DNA of 64,000 nt from positions 1,628-65,627 of the forward strand of contig CAZQSY010000005.1 of assembly GCA_964596395.1 (NCBI GenBank), written 5' to 3'. Positions 3,530 to 40,142 of the stretch are shown piece after piece; the stretch's first letter is position 1, and every line of letters starts with the position of its first letter. This stretch comes from an uncultured Candidatus Saccharibacteria bacterium. Its GTDB lineage: Bacteria; Patescibacteriota; Minisyncoccia; Phycocordibacterales; UBA9973. The position numbers and the translations under genes are program-made. The notes under the pieces are model-generated. The model was not told the DNA's origin and made no database searches. It saw only the letters and a program-made list of their open reading frames with translations.

Positions 3530-4759
3530 TTAATTACCTGTGATTTTCATCAACCTATCGTATTTCACTTTCCTTTCGGATTTCGTGGGCGCGCCGGATT
3601 TCAGGCCGAAACATCCGAAAGCGTAGGCCAGGTCGGCGATGAAATCATCATCAGTTTCTTCTCCTCTATTGCTCACAATCAATTCTATCCCGTTTTCCCG
3701 GGCCAGTTTCATCGTCTGCAACGTTTCCGTAAGCGTGCCAATTTGATTCGGCTTTATAATCATCGCACTGATGCTCTTTTTATCTAAGGCCTTTTGCAGA
3801 AGTTCTTTGTTTGAAACAGTCAGGTCATCGCCGACAATTAAAGTGGCTGGAATTTTTTCTTTGAGGAGCGCGAAACTTTCAAAGTCCTCCTCTTCAAACG
3901 GGTCTTCAATGGAAAATAAATTAAACTCATCGGCTAAACTCAAGTACAAGCCCATGAGTTCGTCTTTTGACAGGACTCTGCCGCCAACTTCATACACCCC
4001 GCCTAGGCGGGGTGTATTTTTGTAAAAAGACGAAGCGGCGGCGTCAATAGAAAAACGAACTACCCCCTCTAGATTATTTTTCCTGACTGCTTCTTGAAGT
4101 AAGAGAAATGGCTCTCGCGGGTCGGTAGTTTTTAGCATAAACCCCCCTTCATGGCCAAGATTTGGGTATTCTCCCGTTTGTTCTTTGAGCATTTCTTTCA
4201 GCGTATTCTGAATTTTTATTCCCACCGAAACAGTTTCTTCAACGTCATCAATCATCGGCACAACCAGATGTTCCTGAAAGGCCAGACCATTGTTAGCATG
4301 CTTCCCGCCCTCCAGTAAGTTCATGAAAAGGTACGGTGTCTTGCGTGATGGTTTTATTTCCGCCAAAGCACGCAAGTATTCAAAGGTTTCCAAACCAGAA
4401 ACTTTCGCCGCCGTTTTGGCGCAAGCGATACTCGCACCAATCATAGCGTTGCCGCCCAGATTGTCTTTATTCTTGGTATCATCAAGCTCAACCATCAGCC
4501 GGTCTATTTCTTTTTGGTCTGAAACTTCTTGGCCTACCAAAACACTGGCAATTTTTTCATTCACGTTTTTTATGGCACTTTGCACACCTCTGCCGTCAGA
4601 ATCGCGCAATTCATGCGCCTCATGTGCGCCCGTAGACGCCCCCGAAGGCACAGCAAAACTTCCCAACATCTCCCCTACCCAAACTGTAACTTTCAAAGCG
4701 GGACTTCCCTTCGAATCTCTTACTTCTTCGGCTGTAATTTTCGTTATTTTATTTTCCAT
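3530..4759 (-). CDS. eno: Enolase
   Basis: 409 aa with DSKGSPALKV..VPSGASTGAHEAHELRD and the SNRGEETDD motif; full-length enolase. Confidence 0.95.
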   Translation of the reverse strand: MENKITKITAEEVRDSKGSPALKVTVWVGEMLGSFAVPSGASTGAHEAHELRDSDGRGVQSAIKNVNEKIASVLVGQEVSDQKEIDRLMVELDDTKNKDNLGGNAMIGASIACAKTAAKVSGLETFEYLRALAEIKPSRKTPYLFMNLLEGGKHANNGLAFQEHLVVPMIDDVEETVSVGIKIQNTLKEMLKEQTGEYPNLGHEGGFMLKTTDPREPFLLLQEAVRKNNLEGVVRFSIDAAASSFYKNTPRLGGVYEVGGRVLSKDELMGLYLSLADEFNLFSIEDPFEEEDFESFALLKEKIPATLIVGDDLTVSNKELLQKALDKKSISAMIIKPNQIGTLTETLQTMKLARENGIELIVSNRGEETDDDFIADLAYAFGCFGLKSGAPTKSERKVKYDRLMKITGN

Positions 4760-7790: not shown

Positions 7791-7813
7791 CCAAGAAAAA
7801 ATTTCGCGGCCCT

Positions 7814-9628
7814 TTAGTCGTTTGAAGACCGCATCATCTTCAAAAACACGTCCTGCGAAATATTCACCTTCGCGTTTTCTTTCATGCGGGCTTTGCCGCG
7901 TTTCTGTTTTTCCAAAAGTTTTTTCTTGCGCGAGACGTCTCCCCCTCCGACAACCTTGCTCCCGTGCATAAGTACGTCTTTGCGGTATGCCGAGACCGCT
8001 TCTGACGCGATAATCCTGCCCAGGGCTTTGCCTTGAACTTTAAAGGCAAACTGCTGGCGCGGGATTATACTTTTCAGTTTTTCCACTTGGCCACGCGCTT
8101 CTTCTTCGACTTTGCGGCGGGAAACCACACGGGTAAGCGCGAGCATCGGCTCGTCGGCCACCAAGATATCGAGCCGCGTGACATCAGCCTCGCGGTACTC
8201 GCCGATTTCGTAAGAGATAGAGGCATAACCCGAGGTCAAGCTTTTCAAATCGTCAAAAAAGTTTCGCATCAATTCGCGTAGCGGCATTTTCATGCTCACC
8301 ACCGAACGATTATCACCGAAGCTTTCGGTCGTGCTCATCTCTGCTTCGTGGTCGTACAGAAAAGGCATGAGCGCCGAGACATACATCCCCGGAACGATTA
8401 TTTTTACCGACACCCACGGCTCTTCGGCTTTTACAAAATTCCCGTCATCCGGGAAAAAATGCGGGGAATATACCATCTGCTCCTTGCCGTTTTTCAAAGT
8501 TATTTTATAGGTGATCGAGGGCATGGTTATGACCAGATGCAAATTGAATTCACGCTTCAAACGCTCGGTGATGATTTCAAGATGAAGCATGCCGAGAAAT
8601 CCGCAGCGAAAACCTTTGCCCAAAGTTCCAGACGCCTCTTCTTCGTAAGAAAAAGCCGAGTCGGAGAGTTTCAGCCGCCCGAGCGCGAGCTTGAGTTCAG
8701 GAAAATCATCTGCGTCTTCGGGATACACCGAGGCCCACACGACCGGCTTGGGGTTCATGTATCCCGGAAGCGCCGGCGCGGGCTTCTTGCTCCCTGTCAC
8801 CGTATCGCCGACCGAAGCAATGCCGGGCCTCTTGATGCCGGTGATGATATAGCCGATTTCCCCTGCATTTATTGAATCCTTGGGGGATTCTTCGGGAGAA
8901 AACGTGCCAACCTCGAGCGCGATGAATTTTTCGCCGGAAACCGAAAAAATCAGGCTGTCGCCTTTTTTGACCGAACCGGCAAATAGCCGAACGTAAACGA
9001 TAACTCCGCGATGGTTGTCGTATTTAAAATCAAAGACCAAGGCCTGCGCGCCGTCTTTCGCTTCTTCGCTTAAAACCGGCGCGGAAATTTTTTCTATAAC
9101 CTCCTTTAGCAGATTCTCCACTCCTTGGCCGGTTTTTCCGGAGACCTCTAAAACCGAATCGGGGTCAACATCGAGAAGCACCGCGACCTCCATTTTTGTC
9201 TCTTCGATTCTAGCGAGCGGCGAATCAACTTTTGAAACAACCGGAATTATTTTGAGCCCGCTTTCTCGCGCCATGTGCAAAGTCGTCAGGGTCTGCGCCT
9301 GCGCGCCCTGTGTGGCATCCACGAGCAAAATTGACCCCTCAACGGCCTTCAGAGCCCTGGAGACCTCGTAAGAGAAGTCGATATGCCCGGGTGTGTCTAT
9401 AAGGTTGAGCACATAATTCTGACCCTCCAGGGCGTATTCCATGCGTACGGGCTGCATTTTGATGGTAATACCCCTCTCCCGCTCGAGCTCCATCGAATCA
9501 AGCACCTGCTCGCGCATTTTGCGCTCGGGAATCGTATGCGTCACCTCGAGCATTCTGTCGGCCAGCGTTGATTTCCCGTGGTCTATATGCGCGATAATGC
9601 TGAAATTTCGGATATTTTTCAAATCCAT
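7814..9628 (-). CDS. lepA: Elongation factor 4 (LepA)
   Basis: 604 aa. NIRNFSIIAHIDHGKSTLADRMLE G-domain, EF-G-like domains and the LepA-specific C-terminal domain. Confidence 0.95.
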   Translation of the reverse strand: MDLKNIRNFSIIAHIDHGKSTLADRMLEVTHTIPERKMREQVLDSMELERERGITIKMQPVRMEYALEGQNYVLNLIDTPGHIDFSYEVSRALKAVEGSILLVDATQGAQAQTLTTLHMARESGLKIIPVVSKVDSPLARIEETKMEVAVLLDVDPDSVLEVSGKTGQGVENLLKEVIEKISAPVLSEEAKDGAQALVFDFKYDNHRGVIVYVRLFAGSVKKGDSLIFSVSGEKFIALEVGTFSPEESPKDSINAGEIGYIITGIKRPGIASVGDTVTGSKKPAPALPGYMNPKPVVWASVYPEDADDFPELKLALGRLKLSDSAFSYEEEASGTLGKGFRCGFLGMLHLEIITERLKREFNLHLVITMPSITYKITLKNGKEQMVYSPHFFPDDGNFVKAEEPWVSVKIIVPGMYVSALMPFLYDHEAEMSTTESFGDNRSVVSMKMPLRELMRNFFDDLKSLTSGYASISYEIGEYREADVTRLDILVADEPMLALTRVVSRRKVEEEARGQVEKLKSIIPRQQFAFKVQGKALGRIIASEAVSAYRKDVLMHGSKVVGGGDVSRKKKLLEKQKRGKARMKENAKVNISQDVFLKMMRSSND

Positions 9629-13135: not shown

Positions 13136-16114
13136 TTACGCCAAAATATTTATAAGTCTGTTTTTTACGTAGATTGCTCTCTTTATAGGATTGCCAGCCA
13201 TGTGTTTTGCTACATTTTCATCGGCCAGCGCCTTGTTTTTTACTGTTTCTTCCGAATCGCCGGCGTTTACCAATATTTCCGAACGTACCTTGCCGTTTAC
13301 CTGCACGGCGATTTTTACTTCTTCGTCTTTGAGCAATTTTTCTTCCCACTTCGGCCATGGAGATAAATGTATACTTTTCTTTTCGCCAAGTTCATGCCAA
13401 ATATATTCTGTCACATACGGCGCGAAGGGAGCGAGAATTTGCAGAAATTTTTTGAAATCCTCCGTTGAAATATAATCTGCTTTATCCATTTCTCCGGCTA
13501 GCACCATCATAGCCGAAACAGCCGTGTTAAAACGCATGTTTTCAATATCTTCCGAGACTTTTTTGATGGTTTTATGAAGAAGTTTTGAAAGAGGGGAAGG
13601 CAAGGAATTTTTAAGAGTCGTGGGTTCCCTGCCCTCATGACTCCGAGGGCGAAGGCTCAGAAAATTCTTTGCATTCCCCTCTTTGACCTTTTGCCCGATT
13701 CGCCACACTTTTTCTATAAACCTGCGCGGGCCGATGATGCTCTCGGTACTCCAAACCGCCGCTTCTTCGAACGGGCCCATAAACATTTCGTACACGCGTA
13801 GAGTGTCCGCGCCGTAAGTTTTGATGATGTCGTCAGGATTCACCACATTACCTAAAGATTTAGACATTTTTACTCCCCCTTCGCCTAAAATCATTCCGTG
13901 CGAAGTCCGCTTCGCGTACGGTTCCGGCGTCGGCACCAGCTTAAGGTCATACAAAAACTTGTGCCAGAAACGCGAATACAGAAGGTGCAGTGTAGTATGT
14001 TCCATGCCTCCGTTGTACCAATCTACTCCGCCAGGACCCAACTTGGAAGTCCGACTTCCAAGTGACTTGCCAAGCCAATATTTTAAATTTTTCTTGCTTG
14101 CGAATTCTTTATTATTTTTCGGGTCGGTGTAGCGCAAATAATACCAGGAACTCCCGGCCCAGTTTGGCATTGTGTCTGTTTCTCTTTTAGCCGGGCCTTT
14201 GCACTTCGGGCATTTAGTGTTTACCCATTTTGAAATCGAAGCCAGTGGCGACTCGCCGGTATCTGTCGGCTTGTAGCTTTTCACTTCCGGCAATTTCACC
14301 GGCAAATCTTTTTCCGGCACAGGCACCCAGCCGGCATTCAACTTGGAAGTCCGACTTCCAAGCAAGTCCTTCTTCTGGCAATTTTCACAAAACACTAACG
14401 GTATCGGCTCGCCCCAATATCTCTGCCGCGAGAAAACCCAGTCGCGCAGTTTAAATTTGGTAACAATTTTGCCGTCCACAAAATCCGTTATTTTTTTCTT
14501 CGCTTCTTCGGAATTTAAGCCGTCAAACCTGCCGGAGTTTGCAAGAATACCTTCTCCCGCATAAATTTCTAAACCATTCTTAAAAGCCCGCCAATCTCTA
14601 AGCGCTGCTCCTTTTAAGACATTCTCTACCTCTTCCGGTAAAAGCCATTTGGGTTCATGTTTTTCTTTTTCTTCTTCCGATAACTCTATATGTTCACCAT
14701 TCTTCAATTCAAAATAAAGATGGTGAAAATGGGCAAAACGATTTTCTTTTTTCAGAACATGAAAAAACTTTTCGTGAGAACGATACAATTCTTTCACGAA
14801 CACAGGATTCAAGTACCCCGTTTCTTCTTTTATCTCTCTAATGGCCGACTTTACCGAGTCTTCCCCTTCTTCAATTCCCCCGGTTATGAAAGTTATCCAT
14901 CCTCCCTTCTTCCAAAACAAAATTAAATATTTATCAAGAGCCCAATGTTTGACAATCGCGTGCGTTGCATTCCTCTCTATAAACTGAAGCCCCTCCTTCG
15001 GCTTATCTTCTTCGCTGATAAAAATCGGTTCAATGACATTCTTGATTGGCAAATTGTATTTTTTCGCAAACTCGTTATCCCGTTCGTCGTGCGCCGGCAC
15101 AGCCATGATGGCGCCGGTGCCATATTCGGGTAATACATAATCCGCGATAAAAATCGGAATCTCCTCATTGTTTGCCGGATTTACCGCCTTTATTCCTTTG
15201 AGTTCAACGCCGGTTTTTTCTTTGCTCTCGGCTGTACGTTCCATTTCTGTTTTCGTTTTGTTCGCCAGGATGTACTGCCACACCTCGCTCCAGTTGGAAA
15301 TATTATGCCGGAGTTTTTGCACCACCTCGTGCTCGGGCGCCAGCACCAGATAAGTCGCGCCGAAAAGGGTATCCGCGCGAGTAGTGAAAACCTCTATGTC
15401 AAAGGGCACCTTTGACACTTTAAATTTAATCAACACGCCTTCAGACTTTCCTATCCAGTTCCTCTGCTGAATTTTTACCCGCTCCGGATAATCCACCAAA
15501 TCCAAATCCTTATCGAGCCGGTCGGCGTACTTGGTAATCGCGAGCATCCATTGCTCTTTTTCCCTTTTTTCCGTTTGGCTGCCGCAGCGTTCACAGACAC
15601 CCCCAACCGCTTCTTCGTTGGCAAGCCCGATTTTACATTTCGGGCACCAATTTATGTATGACTTCGCCTTGTACGCCAAACCTTTTTTGAAAAGCTGTAA
15701 AAATATCCACTGCGTCCACTTGTAATATTTCGGGTCAGTAGTGTTTATCTCGCGGGGCCAGTCAAAAGAAAAACCAAGTGATTTGAGCTGCCGGCGAAAA
15801 GTATCCGTATTTTTCTTTGTTACCAGCGCCGGCTTCTCCCCCGTTTTTATTGCGTAATTTTCAGTAGGCAGACCAAAAGCGTCCCATCCGATGGGATACA
15901 AGACATTCTGGCCTTCCATTCGCCTTTTTCTGGCGATGATATCCATCGCCGCGTAGCTCCGAATATGGCCGGTATGCAACCCGGCGCCCGAAGGATACGG
16001 AAATTCTACCAGCGGGTAAAACTTTTTCCCCTTATCTGTCGCTCGATAGATTTTTTTCTTTTCCCATTCCTTCCAAACTTTCGGCTCAATTTTTTGGTGG
16101 TCGTAATTTTTCAT
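13136..16114 (-). CDS. leuS: Leucyl-tRNA synthetase carrying an internal NUDIX domain and three small in-frame repeat-element insertions
   Basis: 992 aa. HIGH-type motif PYPSGAGLHTGH, CP1 editing domain TTRADTLFGATY, KMSKS (VKMSKSLGNVV). Extra segments: Nudix box GGIEEGEDSVKSAIREIKEETGY; two LGSRTSKL octapeptides encoded by a 23-bp palindrome; a ~24-aa segment KNFLSLRPRSHEGREPTTLKNSLP encoded by a 70-bp repeat. Confidence 0.95.
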   Translation of the reverse strand: MKNYDHQKIEPKVWKEWEKKKIYRATDKGKKFYPLVEFPYPSGAGLHTGHIRSYAAMDIIARKRRMEGQNVLYPIGWDAFGLPTENYAIKTGEKPALVTKKNTDTFRRQLKSLGFSFDWPREINTTDPKYYKWTQWIFLQLFKKGLAYKAKSYINWCPKCKIGLANEEAVGGVCERCGSQTEKREKEQWMLAITKYADRLDKDLDLVDYPERVKIQQRNWIGKSEGVLIKFKVSKVPFDIEVFTTRADTLFGATYLVLAPEHEVVQKLRHNISNWSEVWQYILANKTKTEMERTAESKEKTGVELKGIKAVNPANNEEIPIFIADYVLPEYGTGAIMAVPAHDERDNEFAKKYNLPIKNVIEPIFISEEDKPKEGLQFIERNATHAIVKHWALDKYLILFWKKGGWITFITGGIEEGEDSVKSAIREIKEETGYLNPVFVKELYRSHEKFFHVLKKENRFAHFHHLYFELKNGEHIELSEEEKEKHEPKWLLPEEVENVLKGAALRDWRAFKNGLEIYAGEGILANSGRFDGLNSEEAKKKITDFVDGKIVTKFKLRDWVFSRQRYWGEPIPLVFCENCQKKDLLGSRTSKLNAGWVPVPEKDLPVKLPEVKSYKPTDTGESPLASISKWVNTKCPKCKGPAKRETDTMPNWAGSSWYYLRYTDPKNNKEFASKKNLKYWLGKSLGSRTSKLGPGGVDWYNGGMEHTTLHLLYSRFWHKFLYDLKLVPTPEPYAKRTSHGMILGEGGVKMSKSLGNVVNPDDIIKTYGADTLRVYEMFMGPFEEAAVWSTESIIGPRRFIEKVWRIGQKVKEGNAKNFLSLRPRSHEGREPTTLKNSLPSPLSKLLHKTIKKVSEDIENMRFNTAVSAMMVLAGEMDKADYISTEDFKKFLQILAPFAPYVTEYIWHELGEKKSIHLSPWPKWEEKLLKDEEVKIAVQVNGKVRSEILVNAGDSEETVKNKALADENVAKHMAGNPIKRAIYVKNRLINILA
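13607..13673. repeat. Family-2 MITE-like element (~70 bp), copy 1, in-frame inside leuS
   Basis: ggaatttttaagagtcgtgggttccctgccctcatgactccgagggcgaaggctcagaaaattcttt. About 80% identical to 18100-18169. AGAATTTT-type terminal inverted repeats and a GC-rich core hairpin (gccctc...gagggc). Confidence 0.6.
14041..14063. repeat. REP-like 23-bp perfect palindrome (copy A), in-frame inside leuS
   Basis: ACTTGGAAGTCCGACTTCCAAGT; encodes LGSRTSKL on the leuS strand just before the conserved VDWY.GG.EH..LHLLY block. Confidence 0.8.
14341..14363. repeat. REP-like palindrome (copy B, 22/23), in-frame inside leuS
   Basis: ACTTGGAAGTCCGACTTCCAAGc, exactly 300 bp from copy A. Encodes a second LGSRTSKL just before the conserved VPVPEKDLPV block. 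Confidence 0.8.
14555..15025 (-). other. NUDIX hydrolase domain (~155 aa) inserted in LeuRS between the editing domain and the ZN/leucyl-specific region
   Basis: Nudix box G-x5-E-x7-REUxEExGU satisfied exactly by GGIEEGEDSVKSAIREIKEETGY (nt 14813-14881). Flanking residues NLPIKNVIEP and GILANSGRFDGL match contiguous E. coli LeuRS positions. Confidence 0.7.
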
Positions 16115-16125
16115 ACCCCTGCGGA

Positions 16126-17166
16126 TTATCTTGCCGGCTTAGGGTAAGGCGGATACATATCCTTGTCTATCGTCCTTTCGAAACACGTTCGGCCGGCTTC
16201 ATGGTCCCAGGATTCATTAACCCCACCCCCAGGATACGGGTAAGAAACCGCGACATCTTTTTCTGGATAACCCATCATAGGCACTGTCCTTCCTCCGCTA
16301 TATTCTCTCCAACCCTTCGGCATCGGCAAAGAGAAAGCGGCGCAAAGCTCAAAAGTAAGTTTCTTTGCATCTTTAACAGCGTATTCGTAAGCCATGCCCT
16401 TTTCAAACTCCGGGTCAACCGGCAAGCTGTAACCCGAAAGAGGGTTAGCCAGGTCAGAAAGTTTTTCGGGCAGTTTCTCTTTTTGCTGCCAGTAGTTTAT
16501 CACTTGATATTGCATATTCATAAGGTCGTTCACCCGCCGGTCGTCAAGACGGAGCTGTCTTTGTTTAAAAGGACTGCCCATTACGGTAAAGCTCCAGATA
16601 ATCACCAGCAAGACCAGCGCGCTCGACTTGATTGAGGCAGAAAGTCCGATGCCGACGCCGAAAACCTTTTCTTTCTTTTTGAGTTCAAAAATAAAATAAA
16701 AGCCCACATACAAAGCGACTATCAAAACCGCTGTTACTTTCAATATAAATCTCGTGGTTACTTCGCCCGAGATGAAGTACCTTATCAGGGCCACCAGGTC
16801 TACCGCCGCCACAATTGAAGACAGAAAAAGTATGACGTATATCACCCACCTTCGCACAATTTCATCGCCCGCTCCTATCACCCCCCTCCCGTACTTCTTC
16901 CAAAAACGAGAGACAATCAAAAAAACCGGAAAGAAAATAATGAGCGTGGCCAGCGCGAAGCGCATCCCTTCGTAATCGTAAACCGAGTATCCGTACTGGT
17001 AAGATGAATTCAAGACATCCGGGAAACGCTTGTTGAGCGTCTCAAAAACGAGATTAAGGAAAGATGTTACGGAAGTTATTAAAGTTATGAGTAATCCAAG
17101 AGACAGGAAAAAGAATCCCGCAGAAACCTTTTGCCTGACTGGCTGCAAAACTTGTTGTGTTTCCAT
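16126..17166 (-). CDS. hypothetical polytopic membrane protein
   Basis: 346 aa with several N-terminal TM segments and a C-terminal soluble region; no family recognised. Confidence 0.4.
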   Translation of the reverse strand: METQQVLQPVRQKVSAGFFFLSLGLLITLITSVTSFLNLVFETLNKRFPDVLNSSYQYGYSVYDYEGMRFALATLIIFFPVFLIVSRFWKKYGRGVIGAGDEIVRRWVIYVILFLSSIVAAVDLVALIRYFISGEVTTRFILKVTAVLIVALYVGFYFIFELKKKEKVFGVGIGLSASIKSSALVLLVIIWSFTVMGSPFKQRQLRLDDRRVNDLMNMQYQVINYWQQKEKLPEKLSDLANPLSGYSLPVDPEFEKGMAYEYAVKDAKKLTFELCAAFSLPMPKGWREYSGGRTVPMMGYPEKDVAVSYPYPGGGVNESWDHEAGRTCFERTIDKDMYPPYPKPAR

Positions 17167-23618: not shown

Positions 23619-24620
23619 CTAAAATTTTTTTCTCGTTATAACTTGCAGAACAACCCTTTTAATATCAACTATGTCCATGTGGTAGTGTGCCAGAAGTTCG
23701 GCGGGTAAACCGGATTGGCCGAACTTGTTTTGTACGCCGACGAATTCAATAGGTACCGGATAATTTTGCGCTAGAACTTCTGCTACAGCCCCACCCATGC
23801 CTCCCCTTACCTGATGCTCTTCTACTGTCACAACGGCTTTGCATTCTTTGGCCAGAGCTATCACAGCTCCTTCATCTATCGGCGAAATCGAAGACAAATT
23901 CATAACTTTGGTTTTTATTCCCTCTTGCTCAAGCTCTTTCGCCGCAACTAGCGCGCGGTAAAGTAACGCGCCGGTGGCGATTATACCCGCATCTGCAAGT
24001 CCGGCATCAGGTAACCAGTAAATTTGCGCCCTGCCGACTTCAAAAGATGTCTCTTCGGTGGTGATAATCGGCGTCTTTTCGCGAGCCAAGCGTAAATATG
24101 CCGGTTTTCTTGTTTTTGCCAACGCGATTGTCGCCTTTTTCGCTTCTATCGCATCGCACGGAGAAATGACGTCCATATTCGGGAGCGCCCGCATCATGGC
24201 AATATCTTCGAGCGCCTGGTGACTGCCGCCGTCAGGGCCCACCGAGATGCCGGCATGGCTCCCAACAATTACCACCTTCCTATCATTGTATGCGATCGTC
24301 GTCCGTATCTGTTCCCAATTTCGCCCGGGCGAAAAAGTCGCGTACGAAGAACAAAAAGGAATTTTTCCCATTGCCGCCATACCCGAGGCCACCGTCACCA
24401 AGTTCTGTTCGGCCACGCCGATTTCTACAAATCTTTCGGGGAATTTTTCTTTGAACAAATGCATCTGGGTGGACTCTGTCAAGTCCGCGCAAAGCGCGAC
24501 GACATTGCCATCCGCCTCCCCCGCCTTGAGCAACCCTTCCCCGAAACCTTTGCGTATCGGCGCCTGCTCAACATCATTACTGAAAATTTTTGGATTTAAT
24601 TTTAATTCCGGGTTTAACAT
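23619..24620 (-). CDS. tktC: Transketolase, C-terminal subunit (pyrimidine-binding plus C-terminal domains)
   Basis: 333 aa. PIRKGFGEGL, FVEIGVAEQNLV, SHAGISVGPDGGSHQALEDIA. Confidence 0.9.
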   Translation of the reverse strand: MLNPELKLNPKIFSNDVEQAPIRKGFGEGLLKAGEADGNVVALCADLTESTQMHLFKEKFPERFVEIGVAEQNLVTVASGMAAMGKIPFCSSYATFSPGRNWEQIRTTIAYNDRKVVIVGSHAGISVGPDGGSHQALEDIAMMRALPNMDVISPCDAIEAKKATIALAKTRKPAYLRLAREKTPIITTEETSFEVGRAQIYWLPDAGLADAGIIATGALLYRALVAAKELEQEGIKTKVMNLSSISPIDEGAVIALAKECKAVVTVEEHQVRGGMGGAVAEVLAQNYPVPIEFVGVQNKFGQSGLPAELLAHYHMDIVDIKRVVLQVITRKKF

Positions 24621-24651: not shown

Positions 24652-24674
24652 ACTTGGAAGTCCGACTTCCAAGT
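24652..24674. repeat. REP-like 23-bp palindrome (copy C), left boundary of the RAYT/SDR insertion; overlaps the putative RAYT promoter
   Basis: ACTTGGAAGTCCGACTTCCAAGT, 31 bp upstream of the tktC start. Its TTGGAA (24654-24659) lies 17 bp upstream of TGgTATAAT (24674-24682). Confidence 0.8.
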
Positions 24675-24682
24675 GGTATAAT

Positions 24683-25315
24683 TTGGCTATGAGGAAACAT
24701 AAATTCGTGGAGGGAGAATACTACCACATATATAACCGTGGAACAGAAAAAAGAAAAATAATCCTAGACGAATACGACCTAGACCGTTTTCTAGAAAGCA
24801 TGAAAGAGTTCAACACATTAGAACCTATAGGAAGTATTTACGAACAATCTTTCATAAAAAAGGAACTTGGAAGTCCGACTTCCAAGTCCAAACTGGTATC
24901 AATAATATCCTACTGCATAAACCCAAACCATTTTCATATGCTGATTACTCCCCTAGTAGAAAAGGGGATAGAAAAGTTTATGCAAAGAATTGGTGGTTAT
25001 ACTAAATATTTTAACGAAAAATATAAAAGAAACGGGGTTCTGTTTCAAGGTAAATTTAAATCAAAACATGTCTATACAGATAATAGATATTTGCTTCACT
25101 TAAGCGCTTACATAAACATGAACAACCGCAACCGACTTGGAAGTCCGACTTCCAAGTTGAGTAAATCGAGCTTGGAAGAATACACTAAAGGCGAAAAGGG
25201 TATCTGTAACATGGATATAGTCTTGGGTCAGTTTGAAAACGGAAAAGAGTATCTAAGGTTTTCTTTGGAATCCTGGCAAGATACGCAGGAAAGAAAAAAA
25301 GCTCTTGAAATGTAA
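24683..25315 (+). CDS. REP-associated tyrosine transposase (RAYT; IS200/IS605-like HUH-Y1), carrying two in-frame REP copies
   Basis: YYHIYNRG (cf. RAYT YHVTQRG), HUH motif NPNHFHMLITP (cf. SNHVHLLLTP), GGYTKYFNEKYKRNGVLFQGKFKSKHVYTDNRYLLHLSAYIN (cf. YTRYINRRYGRTGHLWQGRFKS...EYLLACSRYIELNP). The likely true start is the ATG at 24689. Confidence 0.75.
   Translation: MAMRKHKFVEGEYYHIYNRGTEKRKIILDEYDLDRFLESMKEFNTLEPIGSIYEQSFIKKELGSPTSKSKLVSIISYCINPNHFHMLITPLVEKGIEKFMQRIGGYTKYFNEKYKRNGVLFQGKFKSKHVYTDNRYLLHLSAYINMNNRNRLGSPTSKLSKSSLEEYTKGEKGICNMDIVLGQFENGKEYLRFSLESWQDTQERKKALEM
24865..24887. repeat. REP-like palindrome (copy D), in-frame inside the RAYT gene
   Basis: ACTTGGAAGTCCGACTTCCAAGT encoding ELGSPTSK. 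Confidence 0.8.
25135..25157. repeat. REP-like palindrome (copy E), in-frame inside the RAYT gene
   Basis: ACTTGGAAGTCCGACTTCCAAGT encoding RLGSPTSKL, near the RAYT C-terminus. Confidence 0.8.
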
Positions 25316-25337
25316 CTTAGTACTTCGATTACTAAGT
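25315..25337. repeat. Degenerate REP-like 23-bp hairpin (15/23 identity to the REP) at the convergent RAYT/SDR junction
   Basis: ACTTAGTACTTCGATTACTAAGT has an 8-bp stem and 7-nt loop. It overlaps the RAYT stop and could act as a bidirectional terminator. Confidence 0.45.
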
Positions 25338-25339
25338 AC

Positions 25340-26080
25340 TTAGGTATGATATCCCTCCTGTATCTTCCGACCTTTTTTCAATACAAATACTTTACCGGTA
25401 ACCGCTTTCTTGCTTATACACAAACGTATGACAAACTTCGCTATTGCCTCGGGTGCAACCGTGTCACCAAGGTACTGTGGAAAATATTTTTTGTAGGCTT
25501 CAGTTGCAGTGTCAGAAGGAGAAATACAATTCACGCTTATTTTTTTATTTTTGAGTTCTTCCGCTAATCCAACTGTTAAATCTTCAATCCCTCTCTTTGA
25601 GACAAAATAAGGCAACCAACCCTTAGCACCGTTTTCAAATGTACCGGATACATTTAAAATTTTTGACCCTACTGGCATTACAGGAATGAAAGCATGAGCC
25701 AGAAGTGTAGGAGCGATCAATCCGACACAATACGTGTCAACTATGACTTGAGGATTAAAAGTTTCAAAATCTTTATTGGCATATACTTCATTTGCACCAT
25801 GCCAAATACCCGCGACATTAATTAAAAAACTAACATCTTTGTTTAATTTTTTAATCTTTTTAATGGTTTTATTAATTGAATCTACTCTGCTTAAATCTGT
25901 AACAAAATGTACACTTTTTCCGCCAATATTCTTTATCAATTTATTAGTTTCCACCAATTTTTTCTTTGTTCGAGCGATAAGAATAACCTCGATCCCCTCT
26001 TTTGCCATGGCAACAGAAACAGCCTTGCCAATTCCTGTACTGGCACCTGTAATAATCGCTAACTTATTTTTAAATTTCAT
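25340..26080 (-). CDS. Short-chain dehydrogenase/reductase (SDR)
   Basis: MKFKNKLAIITGASTGIGKA (TGxxxGxG), NVAG, catalytic Y..K (YFVSK). The ORF-track N-terminal extension merely reads through REP copy F; the true start is the ATG at 26080. Confidence 0.8.
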   Translation of the reverse strand: MKFKNKLAIITGASTGIGKAVSVAMAKEGIEVILIARTKKKLVETNKLIKNIGGKSVHFVTDLSRVDSINKTIKKIKKLNKDVSFLINVAGIWHGANEVYANKDFETFNPQVIVDTYCVGLIAPTLLAHAFIPVMPVGSKILNVSGTFENGAKGWLPYFVSKRGIEDLTVGLAEELKNKKISVNCISPSDTATEAYKKYFPQYLGDTVAPEAIAKFVIRLCISKKAVTGKVFVLKKGRKIQEGYHT

Positions 26081-26090
26081 AAATCTAGTC

Positions 26091-26113
26091 ACTTGGAAGT
26101 CGGACTTCCAAGT
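26091..26113. repeat. REP-like palindrome (copy F, centre G = inverted orientation), right boundary of the RAYT/SDR insertion
   Basis: ACTTGGAAGTCGGACTTCCAAGT, 2 bp after the tktN stop and 10 bp before the SDR start. Confidence 0.8.
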
Positions 26114-26114
26114 A

Positions 26115-26975
26115 CTATTGATGCTCGCTTTTAATTTTGCCGCCCAAAGTGCGGAGCTCGGCGAGCGCCATTTCGGCTTCTTCTTTCGAAGGCGGTTTGC
26201 CGTGCCACTTGTAATCCCTTTCAAATTCTTTCACGCCTCTGCCCGGAATCGTATGCGCGATAATTACAGTCGGCTTTTCTTCTACAGATTGCGCTTCACT
26301 TACTGCTTGATTCAAAGCCATAAAATCATGCCCTGAAACTTCTATCACGTGCCAGTTAAAACTTTTCCATTTGTCCGCCAGCGGCTCAAGCGGCATGATG
26401 TTTTCGGTAAAGCCGTCTATCTGAATGTTGTTTCTGTCAACAACCGCGATTAAATTTCTCAACTTATTTTTCCCGGCAAACATAATCGCTTCCCAGGAAT
26501 TCCCTTCATCAAGCTCACCGTCAGACATGAAGCAATACACGAATCTGTCTCTGTCTTTGCCGTTCATTTTATCCGCCAAAGCCATGCCGGATGCCTGCGC
26601 GAGGCCCGAGCCGAGCGGCCCCGAAGAATTCTCGAGCCAGGGCATAAATTCCCGATGCGGGTGGCCCTGCAGGCGGCTGCCGAACTTGCGCAAAGTTGAA
26701 AGCTCTTCAAGGGGAAAATACCCTGCGTGCGCCATAGTCGCGTACAAAACTGGCGCTATGTGCCCGTTTGAGAGCACAAATCTGTCCCGCTCCTCCCAGG
26801 AAGGATTCTTCGGGTCATGTTTTAAGACGTGAAAATAAAAAAGGGCGAAAATATCGGCCATCCCGAGCGGCCCGGCCGTGTGCCCGCTCCCCGCTTCAAG
26901 GAGCATTTCAATTATGCTCTTTCTGATTTCGTTTGCTTTCTCCTCCAGAAATTTAATTTTCTCATCGGTCAACAT
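26115..26975 (-). CDS. tktN: Transketolase, N-terminal subunit (TPP-binding)
   Basis: 286 aa. SGHTAGPLGMADIFALFYFHVL, GHIAPVLYA, GPLGSGLAQASGMA, DGELDEGNSWEA. Confidence 0.9.
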   Translation of the reverse strand: MLTDEKIKFLEEKANEIRKSIIEMLLEAGSGHTAGPLGMADIFALFYFHVLKHDPKNPSWEERDRFVLSNGHIAPVLYATMAHAGYFPLEELSTLRKFGSRLQGHPHREFMPWLENSSGPLGSGLAQASGMALADKMNGKDRDRFVYCFMSDGELDEGNSWEAIMFAGKNKLRNLIAVVDRNNIQIDGFTENIMPLEPLADKWKSFNWHVIEVSGHDFMALNQAVSEAQSVEEKPTVIIAHTIPGRGVKEFERDYKWHGKPPSKEEAEMALAELRTLGGKIKSEHQ

Positions 26976-39236: not shown

Positions 39237-40142
39237 ATGGAAAAACTAATCAATACAAGCAGAAGGCTAACCTTTGCATTTTGGGGAACGCCGAAGATAG
39301 CGAGCGAAACTTTAGAAATTCTGAAAGAAAGCGGTTTTTTGCCGTCGCTCATAATTACTTCGCCCGACAGGCCGCAGGGGCGGAAAATGACCGTAACCCC
39401 CCCGCCGGTAAAAGTTTGGGCGGTGGAAAATAACATTCCATATCTGCAGCCGGAGAACTTCATGTCAAGGACGGTCCTTGACACTTTGTCAAAGGGCACC
39501 TTTGACATATCTGTTGTTGTTGCTTACGGAAAGATAATTCCGGAGGAAATTTTAGACATGCCAAAATTTGGCTCAATAAACGTGCACTATTCCCTGCTCC
39601 CAAAATACCGCGGGGCCTCGCCTGTCGAATCTGCAGTATTAAATGGTGAAACAGAAACTGGCGTAAGTATTCAGAAGATGGAATACAAGATGGATACCGG
39701 CCCGATTCTGGCCGCAGAAAAAACGGAAATTGGCAAAGACGAAAAAGCGCCGGAGCTTAAAAAACGCCTGACAAAAATCGGCGGAGAATTGTTAATAAAG
39801 TTATTGAATACCACCCCCACCCTTGATAAGGAGGGGGGCTGGGAAGGGGTCAAACAAGACGAATCCCAAGCCACTTACTGCAAAAAAATAAAAAAAGAAG
39901 ACGGACTAGTGAATCTGGAAGCTGAACTCCCAATTACGCTGTACAACAAATTCCGCGCCTACGCCGAGTGGCCCAGGATTTTCTTTTTCAGATGGCACCT
40001 GCCTGCCGGCAGGCAGGAAAGAGTAATCATTACCGATGCTTCGCTTGAGGACGGAAAATTCGCAATCAAAAAAGTTTTACCCGAGGGCAGAAAAGAAATA
40101 ACCTGGGAAGAATTCAAGAAAAACTATTCTAATATTCTATAG
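39237..40142 (+). CDS. fmt: Methionyl-tRNA formyltransferase
   Basis: FWGTPKIASETLE, INVHYSLLPKYRGASPVESAVLNGETETGVSI, C-terminal Fmt domain. Confidence 0.9.
   Translation: MEKLINTSRRLTFAFWGTPKIASETLEILKESGFLPSLIITSPDRPQGRKMTVTPPPVKVWAVENNIPYLQPENFMSRTVLDTLSKGTFDISVVVAYGKIIPEEILDMPKFGSINVHYSLLPKYRGASPVESAVLNGETETGVSIQKMEYKMDTGPILAAEKTEIGKDEKAPELKKRLTKIGGELLIKLLNTTPTLDKEGGWEGVKQDESQATYCKKIKKEDGLVNLEAELPITLYNKFRAYAEWPRIFFFRWHLPAGRQERVIITDASLEDGKFAIKKVLPEGRKEITWEEFKKNYSNIL

Follow-up and report, generated by a model that had tools for sequence, protein, structure and literature searches.

RAYT-REP(IN) systems, or REPtrons, in which a REP-associated tyrosine transposase (RAYT) is paired with repetitive extragenic palindromes (REPs) or their doublets (REPINs), have reportedly been described in Proteobacteria, for E. 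coli TnpA(REP)/YafM and for the Pseudomonas RAYT groups 2 and 3, by Nunvar in 2010, Bertels & Rainey in 2011 and Ton-Hoang in 2012; proteobacterial REPs number in the hundreds per genome. Another class of dispersed palindromes, the Rickettsia palindromic elements (RPEs), is said to go back to Ogata in 2000, and such an element spans ~100-150 bp. REPtrons, REP-flanked RAYTs, REPINs and the vertical inheritance of RAYTs are already established (Bertels 2017, PMC5581495; PMC3733652), and the E. coli TnpA(REP) depends on a 5' GTAG and on a hairpin with a mismatched bulge (Messing 2012, PMC3479197). In-frame intragenic REPs, often dimers and often located in repair or tRNA-synthetase genes, have been known since 2013 in other phyla and earlier in Rickettsia (Di Nocera et al. 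2013, PMC3733652); among the flanking repeats, this survey notes some that overlap the ends of RAYT genes, but it does not mention fixed internal copies (PMC3733652). Here we describe a locus at positions 24652-26113 of a 64-kb stretch of a genome of an uncultured bacterium (contig CAZQSY010000005.1; hereafter, the window), to which all counts of genes and repeats in the source genome refer. We estimate at about 80% the probability that this locus is a REPtron of Patescibacteria (Paceibacterota-type) that consists of a single-copy, vertically inherited RAYT-like HUH/Y1 transposase gene and a cognate 23-nt hairpin repeat.

Like the proteobacterial REPtrons, this system includes an enzyme of the HUH/Y1 fold that contains an HUH motif and a catalytic Tyr; its gene, apparently single-copy, is stable in synteny and is flanked by its own palindromic repeat. 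The repeat is also dispersed alone, as monomers and as inverted dimers that are predicted to fold into one long hairpin, and the enzyme and the repeat diverge together. Unlike in those systems, two copies of the repeat occupy fixed sites within the transposase open reading frame (ORF) and one lies in the promoter, and the host belongs to the Patescibacteria. Similarly to the intragenic REPs and the Rickettsia elements, copies are found in frame in housekeeping genes, to which they add short peptides; many are dimers, and many of the genes are those of replication, repair and tRNA synthetases. However, RPE-1 of Rickettsia is much longer and has no known transposase, whereas the unit described here is 21-45 nt long and comes with a cognate transposase. 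The intragenic REPs of the 2013 survey are GTAG- or CGTC-tagged and come from Opitutus, Xanthomonas, Rickettsia and others (PMC3733652), whereas here the units measure exactly 21 or 23 nt, roughly half or more of the examined copies are intragenic, and the transposase gene itself is among the hosts. With the insertion sequences of the IS200/IS605 type (IS608, ISDra2), the system shares the catalytic fold, the presumed recognition of subterminal hairpins on single-stranded DNA and the lack of classical terminal inverted repeats, but IS608 and ISDra2 are mobile as whole units, are present in multiple copies, have distinct ends with guide sequences, form obligate dimers and often carry tnpB, whereas here the gene is fixed and the hairpin alone disperses. 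In the literature, we found no paper linking the Candidate Phyla Radiation (CPR)/Patescibacteria with REPs or RAYTs, and none with these repeat sequences or peptides or with in-frame palindromes in Parcubacteria. New here are a clade of RAYT-like enzymes that the curated family does not include, a hairpin without GTAG, a largely intragenic lifestyle and the presence of the hairpin in the promoter and the ORF of its own enzyme; REP copies that are fixed inside the transposase ORF and evolve in concert with the gene appear to be undescribed.

A search of the window with the pattern ACTTGGAAGTCSGACTTCCAAGT, with up to 3 mismatches allowed, detected six copies of the 23-bp palindrome ACTTGGAAGTC[C/G]GACTTCCAAGT, compared to 0.00 expected from dinucleotide-preserving shuffles. 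Five of these are perfect, four with C at the centre (14041, 24652, 24865 and 25135) and one with G (26091), and the sixth, at 14341, is near-perfect, with one mismatch (last base C). In the preliminary description, which was made from the sequence without database searches, six perfect copies and one degenerate copy had been counted; the former number is to be amended to five perfect plus one near-perfect, whereas the single diverged copy stands and is probably ACTTAGTACTTCGATTACTAAGT, at 25315-25337 on the plus strand, which shares its first base with the end of the RAYT stop codon and thus directly follows the gene. This copy differs from the window's own variant at 7 positions but from the variant of the closest relatives at only 4. 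An ungapped scan of the window with up to 7 mismatches revealed no copies with 2-6 mismatches, so that there is no visible cloud of decayed copies. The symmetric unit is stop-free in all six frames and has a length divisible by three. As single-stranded DNA, the 23-mer is predicted to fold into a hairpin of -9.1 kcal/mol (z=-5.3), and a head-to-head dimer into one 19-bp hairpin of 42 nt, or 14 codons, with -22.5 kcal/mol (z=-10); this 42-nt dimer is a minimal REPIN, or mini-REPIN. At the gathering threshold, the palindrome matched no known RNA family in Rfam, and neither did any other part of the window; ARAGORN found no tRNA genes in the 64 kb. Five of the six copies have the central C on the plus strand, a sample too small for a test of orientation bias.

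As the preliminary description had it, four copies cluster around the transposase ORF. The first, on the plus strand at 24652..24674, is perfect and lies 37 nt upstream of the RAYT ATG. Two more, also on the plus strand, are located inside the ORF: site 1 at 24865..24887, codons ~59-66, in a low-confidence loop that precedes the HUH strand, and site 2 at 25135..25157, codons ~149-156, 8 residues past the presumed catalytic Tyr (AYINMNN). The fourth, at 26091..26113 with the centre G on the plus strand and in minus-strand orientation, is found 10 nt upstream of the start codon of a short-chain dehydrogenase (SDR) gene (25340..26080, minus strand; Pfam adh_short, E=1.4e-33), between this gene and the N-terminal half of transketolase. 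The remaining two lie in the ORF of leucyl-tRNA synthetase (LeuRS; 13136..16114, minus strand). Thus, four of the six belong to translated sequence, which had gone unnoticed in the preliminary description, and the word extragenic in the name of the REPs does not fit a family that is largely intragenic in this window. All four translated copies are read in one frame, LGS[P/R]TSK, as LGSPTSK twice in RAYT and as LGSRTSK twice in LeuRS.

The transposase ORF, mechanically called at 24683-25315 from a TTG, likely starts at the ATG at 24689, which yields a protein of 208 amino acids (24689..25315, plus strand); the homologs begin with MRKH..., and the cluster member P0121 is also 208 aa long. The motifs that had been singled out in this ORF, YYHIYNRG, HUH (HFHML) and LFQGKFKS, are present, and H83 and H85 of the HUH motif as well as Y143 are invariant across 33 homologs. 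The protein passes the Pfam model Y1_Tnp (PF01797; 34.9 bits against a gathering threshold of 23, E=2e-8) but, among the RAYT profiles against which the identification was to be checked, falls short of the NCBIfam equivalog NF047646 (REP_Tyr_transpos), with 22.8 bits against a cut-off of 80; therefore, it represents a separate RAYT-like clade. An AlphaFold (AF2) model built on the 33 homologs has a pLDDT of 84 and a pTM of 0.82, and when its fold was compared with the PDB using Foldseek, the best match was 4er8_A, the E. coli RAYT-REP hairpin complex (E=6e-5, probability 1.00), followed by IS608, ISDra2 TnpA and IS200 transposases; only this comparison of folds, and not the search of PDB sequences, tied the protein to RAYT and TnpA. 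In the model, the region of site 1 (residues 51-70) has a pLDDT of 60-64 and forms a loop of variable length. Together with the palindrome variant that tracks the gene (see below), the Pfam match and the top structural match bear out the identification of the ORF as a RAYT.

A RAYT-palindrome pair had been considered unusual for a genome of this kind, but such a pair is not rare in CPR: at least 7,818 homologs were detected at E<1e-5, all with PF01797 and several named 'REP element-mobilizing transposase RayT' in IMG, and those at E<1e-30 form 139 clusters at 50% identity. The named sources of the homologs are the Parcubacteria group, Nomurabacteria and Paceibacterota, and because of this provenance, the genome can indeed be regarded as CPR-type. 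Contrary to what had been suggested, it is not especially low in GC, with ~45-46% over the window and 40% over 24-26 kb.

Genes at 2474-3178 of L149 and 5055-5855 of L033 (L numbers designate sequences from other assemblies) represent a second RAYT-like clade, with 40-49% identity to the window protein. Its members possess the canonical segment YI(H/N)LNPVKLI(D/E)P(E/D)WK and carry no embedded repeats. In L149, the gene occupies the site next to transketolase, and the L052-type repeats of this contig all have 1-2 mismatches, possibly as orphaned copies in decay; in L033, the gene is preceded by a different palindrome, AAAAATCCCCCGCCGTGAAGCGAGGGATTTTT. A tblastn search of the 64-kb window with the L149 protein of this clade returned only the RAYT gene already described.

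We compared the window locus with other RAYT loci, 13 in all, with the added homologs picked solely for differing peptides at the two internal sites. Seven 23-nt palindromes are associated with these genes (ACTTGGAAGTCCGACTTCCAAGT, ACTTGGTACTCCGACTACCAAGT, ACTTGGAAGCAAGGCTTCCAAGT, ACTTGGTAGCGAAACTACCAAGT, ACTTAGGGGCGAAACCCCTAAGT, ACTTGGTCACCCGGTGACCAAGT and TTTTAGTAGTTCAACTACTAAAA), and at each locus, the copies carry that locus's own variant. Among the seven variants, compensatory changes are seen in 7 of the 10 stem pairs, with 95.7% of the cells paired; no shuffle or slid register approaches the observed covariation. The loci share a four-position layout, with copies 35-62 nt upstream of the ATG, at ~+176, at ~+446 and within 20 nt of the stop codon. 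In L147, the upstream copy is found at -62, and in the other 12 loci, at -35 to -48; a downstream copy lies no more than 20 nt from the stop codon, or overlaps it, in 8 other loci, and the 3' copy of L034 is inside the end of the ORF. The same pattern is discernible in the proteins. Across 120 homologs, the peptides at sites 1 and 2 covary (LGTPTTK/LGTPTTK, LGSKASK/LGSKASK, LGSETTK/LGSETTK, LRGETPK/LRGETPK), and palindrome-compatible heptapeptides occur in 67% of the homologs at site 1 and in 48% at site 2, compared to 1% at all other positions. Even representatives with no more than ~40-45% identity retain matched pairs.

Because a variant can be flipped and because the DNA of the embedded copies is conserved where synonymous positions are not, selection at these copies apparently acts on DNA rather than on the encoded peptide. 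Specifically, L052 and L053 harbor the identical asymmetric variant in the ORF in opposite orientations, which yields LGTPTTK in one and LGSRSTK in the other, and between the window and L006, both 21-nt embedded cores are identical at 42 of 42 positions whereas the proteins are 60% identical, the genes 62% and the third codon positions 38%. These observations also bear on the possibility that LGS[P/R]TSK is a functional protein motif, such as a linker or a modification site, with the DNA palindromy as a by-product. The single frame shared by the four intragenic copies in the window would agree with a protein motif, but in other genomes all three reading frames are used (LGSxTSK, LEVxLPS, TWKSDFQV) and intergenic copies exist, so this explanation is effectively refuted, given also that the nucleotide sequence of the cores is unchanged despite the saturation of synonymous sites elsewhere in the gene and that the flipped repeat changes the peptide. 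A related candidate, in which the REP-encoded loop determines the DNA specificity of the enzyme, was rejected because the two orientations of one variant in L052 and L053 encode different peptides.

The upstream copy is part of the predicted RAYT promoter (24654-24682), which consists of TTGGAA, a 17-nt spacer and TG-TATAAT, with 10 of 12 matches, and ends 6 nt before the ATG; the copy at 24652 contains the -35 hexamer and the spacer. In the upstream regions examined, the upstream copy keeps a nearly constant offset from the -10 box.

The two copies in LeuRS are informative on how the repeat spreads and turns over. The enzyme (992 aa; minus strand; E=7.6e-200 to 1h3n) contains an inserted NUDIX domain, in line with the Pfam domains of its orthologs, and the copies at 14041 and 14341 fall in 14- and 15-residue gaps of the alignment with the Thermus thermophilus protein 1h3n. 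The CPR ortholog L039, which has the same NUDIX insertion, lacks exactly the residues of both inserts. Among 102 orthologs that were scored, site A (14333..14377, minus strand; 45 nt, QKKDLLGSRTSKLNA, with the REP at 14341-14363 and one mismatch) is empty in 85, and site B (14030..14071, minus strand; 42 nt, GKSLGSRTSKLGPG, with the perfect REP at 14041-14063 and arm-like fragments) is empty in 53, with varied, decayed inserts in the remainder. Thus, the LeuRS copies are evidently real in-frame insertions of 45 and 42 nt. Each insert comprises one intact unit accompanied by arm-like fragments, and the doublet partners of both copies are represented by such fragments only. A presumed fossil REP near LeuRS residues 824-850, where L039 has a dimer, was dropped due to the weak local alignment matches.

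The L149 contig is syntenic with the window and encodes the closest LeuRS ortholog (76% identity). At site A, it contains a head-to-head dimer of the L052-type variant whereas the window contains one unit of its own variant, between matching flanks (GAC TTG | insert | TTG AAT GCC in L149 and GAC TCA | insert | TTG AAT GCT in the window). The closest RAYT relatives of the window protein (76-82% identity) use the L052-type peptide, and the copy after the window RAYT stop codon (25315) still resembles the L052 type. It appears, from these alignments, that the window lineage switched its variant by three changes, namely one compensatory pair and one repair of a C.C mismatch, and that it did so not only in the promoter copy and the two embedded copies but also in at least one ancient site at a distance of 10 kb. 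Such a concerted switch cannot be attributed to independent point mutations and therefore suggests replacement or conversion of old copies or re-insertion into them.

Several features of tRNA synthetases in this group were observed along the way. The NUDIX hydrolase domain, of ~150 residues, follows the editing domain (window 14567-15028, residues ~363-516; GGIEEGEDSVKSAIREIKEETGY), and the LeuRS-NUDIX fusion (PF00293) is found in nearly all of the 120 closest Paceibacterota orthologs and also in L039. Some LeuRS orthologs of more than 1100 aa carry extra PF04480/PF18741 domains. At 5548-7998 of L030, a metagenome-assembled genome of Giovannonibacteria, a class-I tRNA synthetase (tRNA-synt_1) contains an inserted histidine-phosphatase domain (His_Phos_1, residues 509-671) as well as a REP dimer.

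In the reading that goes furthest, the gene and its substrate are interleaved into one self-referential unit, in which the promoter copy and those at codons ~59 and ~149 would function as cis-elements. Old copies would be rewritten in place by the same activity, as at the orthologous LeuRS site, and the specificity of the enzyme and all the repeats of the genome would switch variant together. The copies might then serve as operators or attenuators by which the enzyme senses its own hairpin, or as master copies that renew the dispersed population. We advance this reading tentatively and regard it as doubtful. Plausible, although somewhat unlikely as well, is the possibility that the embedded and neighbouring copies have no function at all, being ancient insertions tolerated in permissive loops and kept matched by RecA-type short-tract gene conversion among four repeats within 700 bp, so that the locus would be an ordinary REPtron with neutral hitch-hiking. 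Such neutrality is consistent with the location of site 1 in a low-confidence loop of variable length, with the orientation-dependent peptides, which cause no apparent harm, with the tolerance of intragenic REPs in other phyla (PMC3733652) and with the decay of embedded copies in L023, L034 and L148. However, the layout persists across the clade down to ~40-45% protein identity, and the two direct repeats are kept even though, at a distance of 270 nt from each other and with the HUH motif and the catalytic Tyr between them, they present a standing deletion hazard. Moreover, the upstream copy is nearly fixed in its offset from the -10 box, and the LeuRS copy 10 kb distant also switched variant, so that homogenisation is not purely local.

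In other genomes, the exact 21-nt core was detected in 49 stretches from ~30 species-representative assemblies, nearly all labelled CPR/Patescibacteria; a RAYT homolog is present in 6 of these stretches. The palindrome was found inside FtsK, RecG, topoisomerase I (twice), DnaG, GluRS, a Mur ligase, KsgA and TatD, inside a class-I tRNA synthetase (of the Ile/Leu/Met/Val type), LeuRS, MetRS, trigger factor and UvrC, and, further, inside MnmA, UppP, a ZIP transporter, TrmD and TsaE. Head-to-head dimers with an alternating central base are common, for example, ACTTGGAAGTCCGACTTCCA-CTTGGAAGTCGGACTTCCAAGT (L005, L008, L022, L036, L149 and others). The L052-type asymmetric variant, in which the C.C mismatch is conserved, is represented by 108 copies in 91 metagenome stretches. 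ORFs of at least 150 aa other than RAYT account for 49 of these copies, short or intergenic sequence for 30, and RAYT genes or their immediate surroundings for 29. Arg-free readings (LGTPTTK, LVVGVPS) are far more common than their Arg-containing counterparts (LGSRSTK, LVLRLPS). The preferred orientation varies with the frame, and therefore, the depletion of Arg-encoding copies indicates filtering at the protein level rather than a strand bias of insertion. In the flanks, examined for 60 window-type and 91 unique L052-type copies, conservation is limited to A at -1 and T at +1 (96% and 95%, respectively, in the L052-type set) and a weak, one-sided 5' preference for YCA. No GTAG is present in these flanks, in agreement with the early impression that the palindrome lacks the canonical head.

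Several copies of the repeat end exactly at the stop codon of the host gene (...CCAAG TAA, LGS[P/R]TSK*; L003 5268, L041 4294, L049 909 and L079 1600), so that the repeat supplies the last seven residues and the stop codon, which would place the hairpin at the 3' end of the mRNA.

Perfect dyad symmetry, together with the overlap of copies with the predicted promoter and their position ahead of the SDR start, raises the question of whether the palindrome is the operator of a dimeric regulator or some other host cis-element, such as a terminator or an uptake signal, with the transposase nearby by coincidence; the hairpin was also called terminator-like in a scan. The chance of this appears very slim. 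Most copies are length-adding in-frame insertions in housekeeping ORFs that are absent from orthologs, head-to-head dimers occur, and the variants covary specifically with the RAYT gene. Furthermore, the asymmetric C.C mismatch maintained across the 91 stretches is typical of strand-specific hairpins of single-stranded DNA, and the lack of an Rfam match also speaks against this possibility.

The RAYT gene is located in or beside a gap-rpiB-rpe-transketolase cluster in the window, L052, L053, L145, L148 and L149, which differ only by local rearrangements, and lies between two transketolase halves in the window and L052. Transketolase is encoded by two genes, for the C-terminal half (window 23619..24620, minus strand) and the N-terminal half (26115..26975, minus strand), which lie side by side in L053, L148 and L149 and are split in the window by the RAYT and SDR genes (GC 0.40). 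Beside RAYT in the other 12 loci, the SDR gene is absent; to judge by this comparison, it is a passenger or neighbour outside the conserved layout.

This split makes it conceivable that 24652-26113 is an autonomous insertion sequence of the IS200/IS605 type, with the outer palindromes as its ends and SDR as a passenger, which recently inserted between the transketolase halves. The outer copies are inverted, as follows from their opposite central bases (C at 24652 and G at 26091), the GC content of the block is 0.40 compared to ~0.46 around it, the halves that it separates are adjacent in the three relatives, and the fold is shared with IS608 and ISDra2 TnpA. We nevertheless consider this quite improbable. 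In relatives of 60-80% identity, RAYT occupies the same gap-rpiB-rpe-tkt neighbourhood, between the tkt halves in L052, which fits vertical inheritance with local rearrangement. In addition, the conserved unit ends just past the RAYT stop codon, with the copy at 25315, leaving SDR out; the window contains one copy of the gene and the same palindrome at both ends rather than distinct left and right ends; the repeat disperses without the gene; and there is no TnpB. Given the conserved synteny and the lack of copies in viral contigs (none of the exact palindrome among 2.9 million), the RAYT gene, single-copy in the window, is apparently domesticated and vertically inherited. A phage origin, which had also been entertained, was rejected on the same search of viral contigs.

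It seems likely that the REPtron functions in the following manner. Like E. coli TnpA(REP) and IS608 TnpA, the enzyme would recognise the repeat as a hairpin on single-stranded DNA and, via its tyrosine, cleave and rejoin the adjoining DNA. The repeat would spread as units of 21 or 23 nt and as head-to-head dimers of ~42 nt. Because there is almost no intergenic space in the genome and the unit is stop-free with a length that is a multiple of three, the copies that survive are often located in frame in essential genes. Copies could be kept alike through repeated replacement or conversion, either by RAYT-catalysed strand exchange at the hairpins or by short-tract gene conversion, rather than through selection on the peptide that they encode. 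Those in the promoter and the ORF probably throttle RAYT expression, by binding of the enzyme or through hairpins in DNA or mRNA.

Several points, most of which also set the system apart from the proteobacterial REPtrons, weigh against this interpretation. The score on the RAYT equivalog model, 22.8 vs 80 bits, is far under the cut-off, a 33-member profile found no match among PDB sequences at E<=1, and the identity to 4er8 in the structural alignment is 17%; binding, cleavage and strand transfer are extrapolated from homologs of this kind. The hairpin has no GTAG or CGTC at its foot, and its stem is perfect or contains a single mismatch, not a bulge; the window palindrome itself is perfect, without the 5' GTAG and without the mismatched bulge that the E. 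coli enzyme requires, so recognition must differ. The copy number is low, with 6 copies in 64 kb and 1-10 exact copies per assembly elsewhere, and both this census and the single-copy status of the gene pertain to 64 kb of the source genome. Decay of embedded copies is seen in L023, in L034 and at site 2 of L148, and such copies are, therefore, not indispensable. At the LeuRS sites, re-insertion at hotspots may have occurred rather than conversion in place, and the suggested autoregulation is read from the geometry of the copies alone.

The window contains other palindromes that are distinct from the REP family. A second, unrelated family, (A)TGTCAAAGG-NNN-CCTTTGACA(T), is found at 15397-15417 and 39462-39508, with 0 expected by chance. 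One of its members is an identical 21-mer within LeuRS that encodes VSKVPFD, with no change in length compared to the T. thermophilus protein, and another is a tandem pair, ATGTCAAGGACGGTCCTTGACAC + TTGTCAAAGGGCACCTTTGACAT, in a formyltransferase ORF (39237-40142) that encodes MSRTVLDTLSKGTFD. Relatives occur in the syntenic L149 at 7805-7829, 14675-14703 and 16515-16539; no cognate enzyme was identified for this family. Two further perfect palindromes also fall outside the REP family, namely ATACACCCCGCCT/AGGCGGGGTGTAT, of 13+13 nt without a spacer, at 3992-4017 and CCTGCCTGCCGGCAGGCAGG at 39998-40017 in the same formyltransferase ORF. The GC skew is negative over nearly all of the window (1-64000).

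As the main model of transposase domestication and of repeat populations that persist over long times by vertical inheritance, RAYT/REP systems raise the questions of what maintains the enzyme and how enzyme and repeat stay matched. The clade described here amounts to a natural experiment, with thousands of members in Patescibacteria and many hairpin variants that differ by compensatory stem changes, in which co-evolution and turnover in place can be read from sequence. The system also shows that, where intergenic DNA is nearly absent from a genome, a selfish hairpin persists through being translatable, and it adds loops of 7-15 residues to core proteins including aminoacyl-tRNA synthetases, topoisomerase I, FtsK and primase; these loops matter for the annotation of CPR proteins, for alignments of protein families and for structure prediction. 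If the gene and its hairpin indeed form a self-referential unit, this would be a new mode of transposase-substrate co-evolution and might also give ultra-small genomes a way to remodel the surface loops of their essential proteins.

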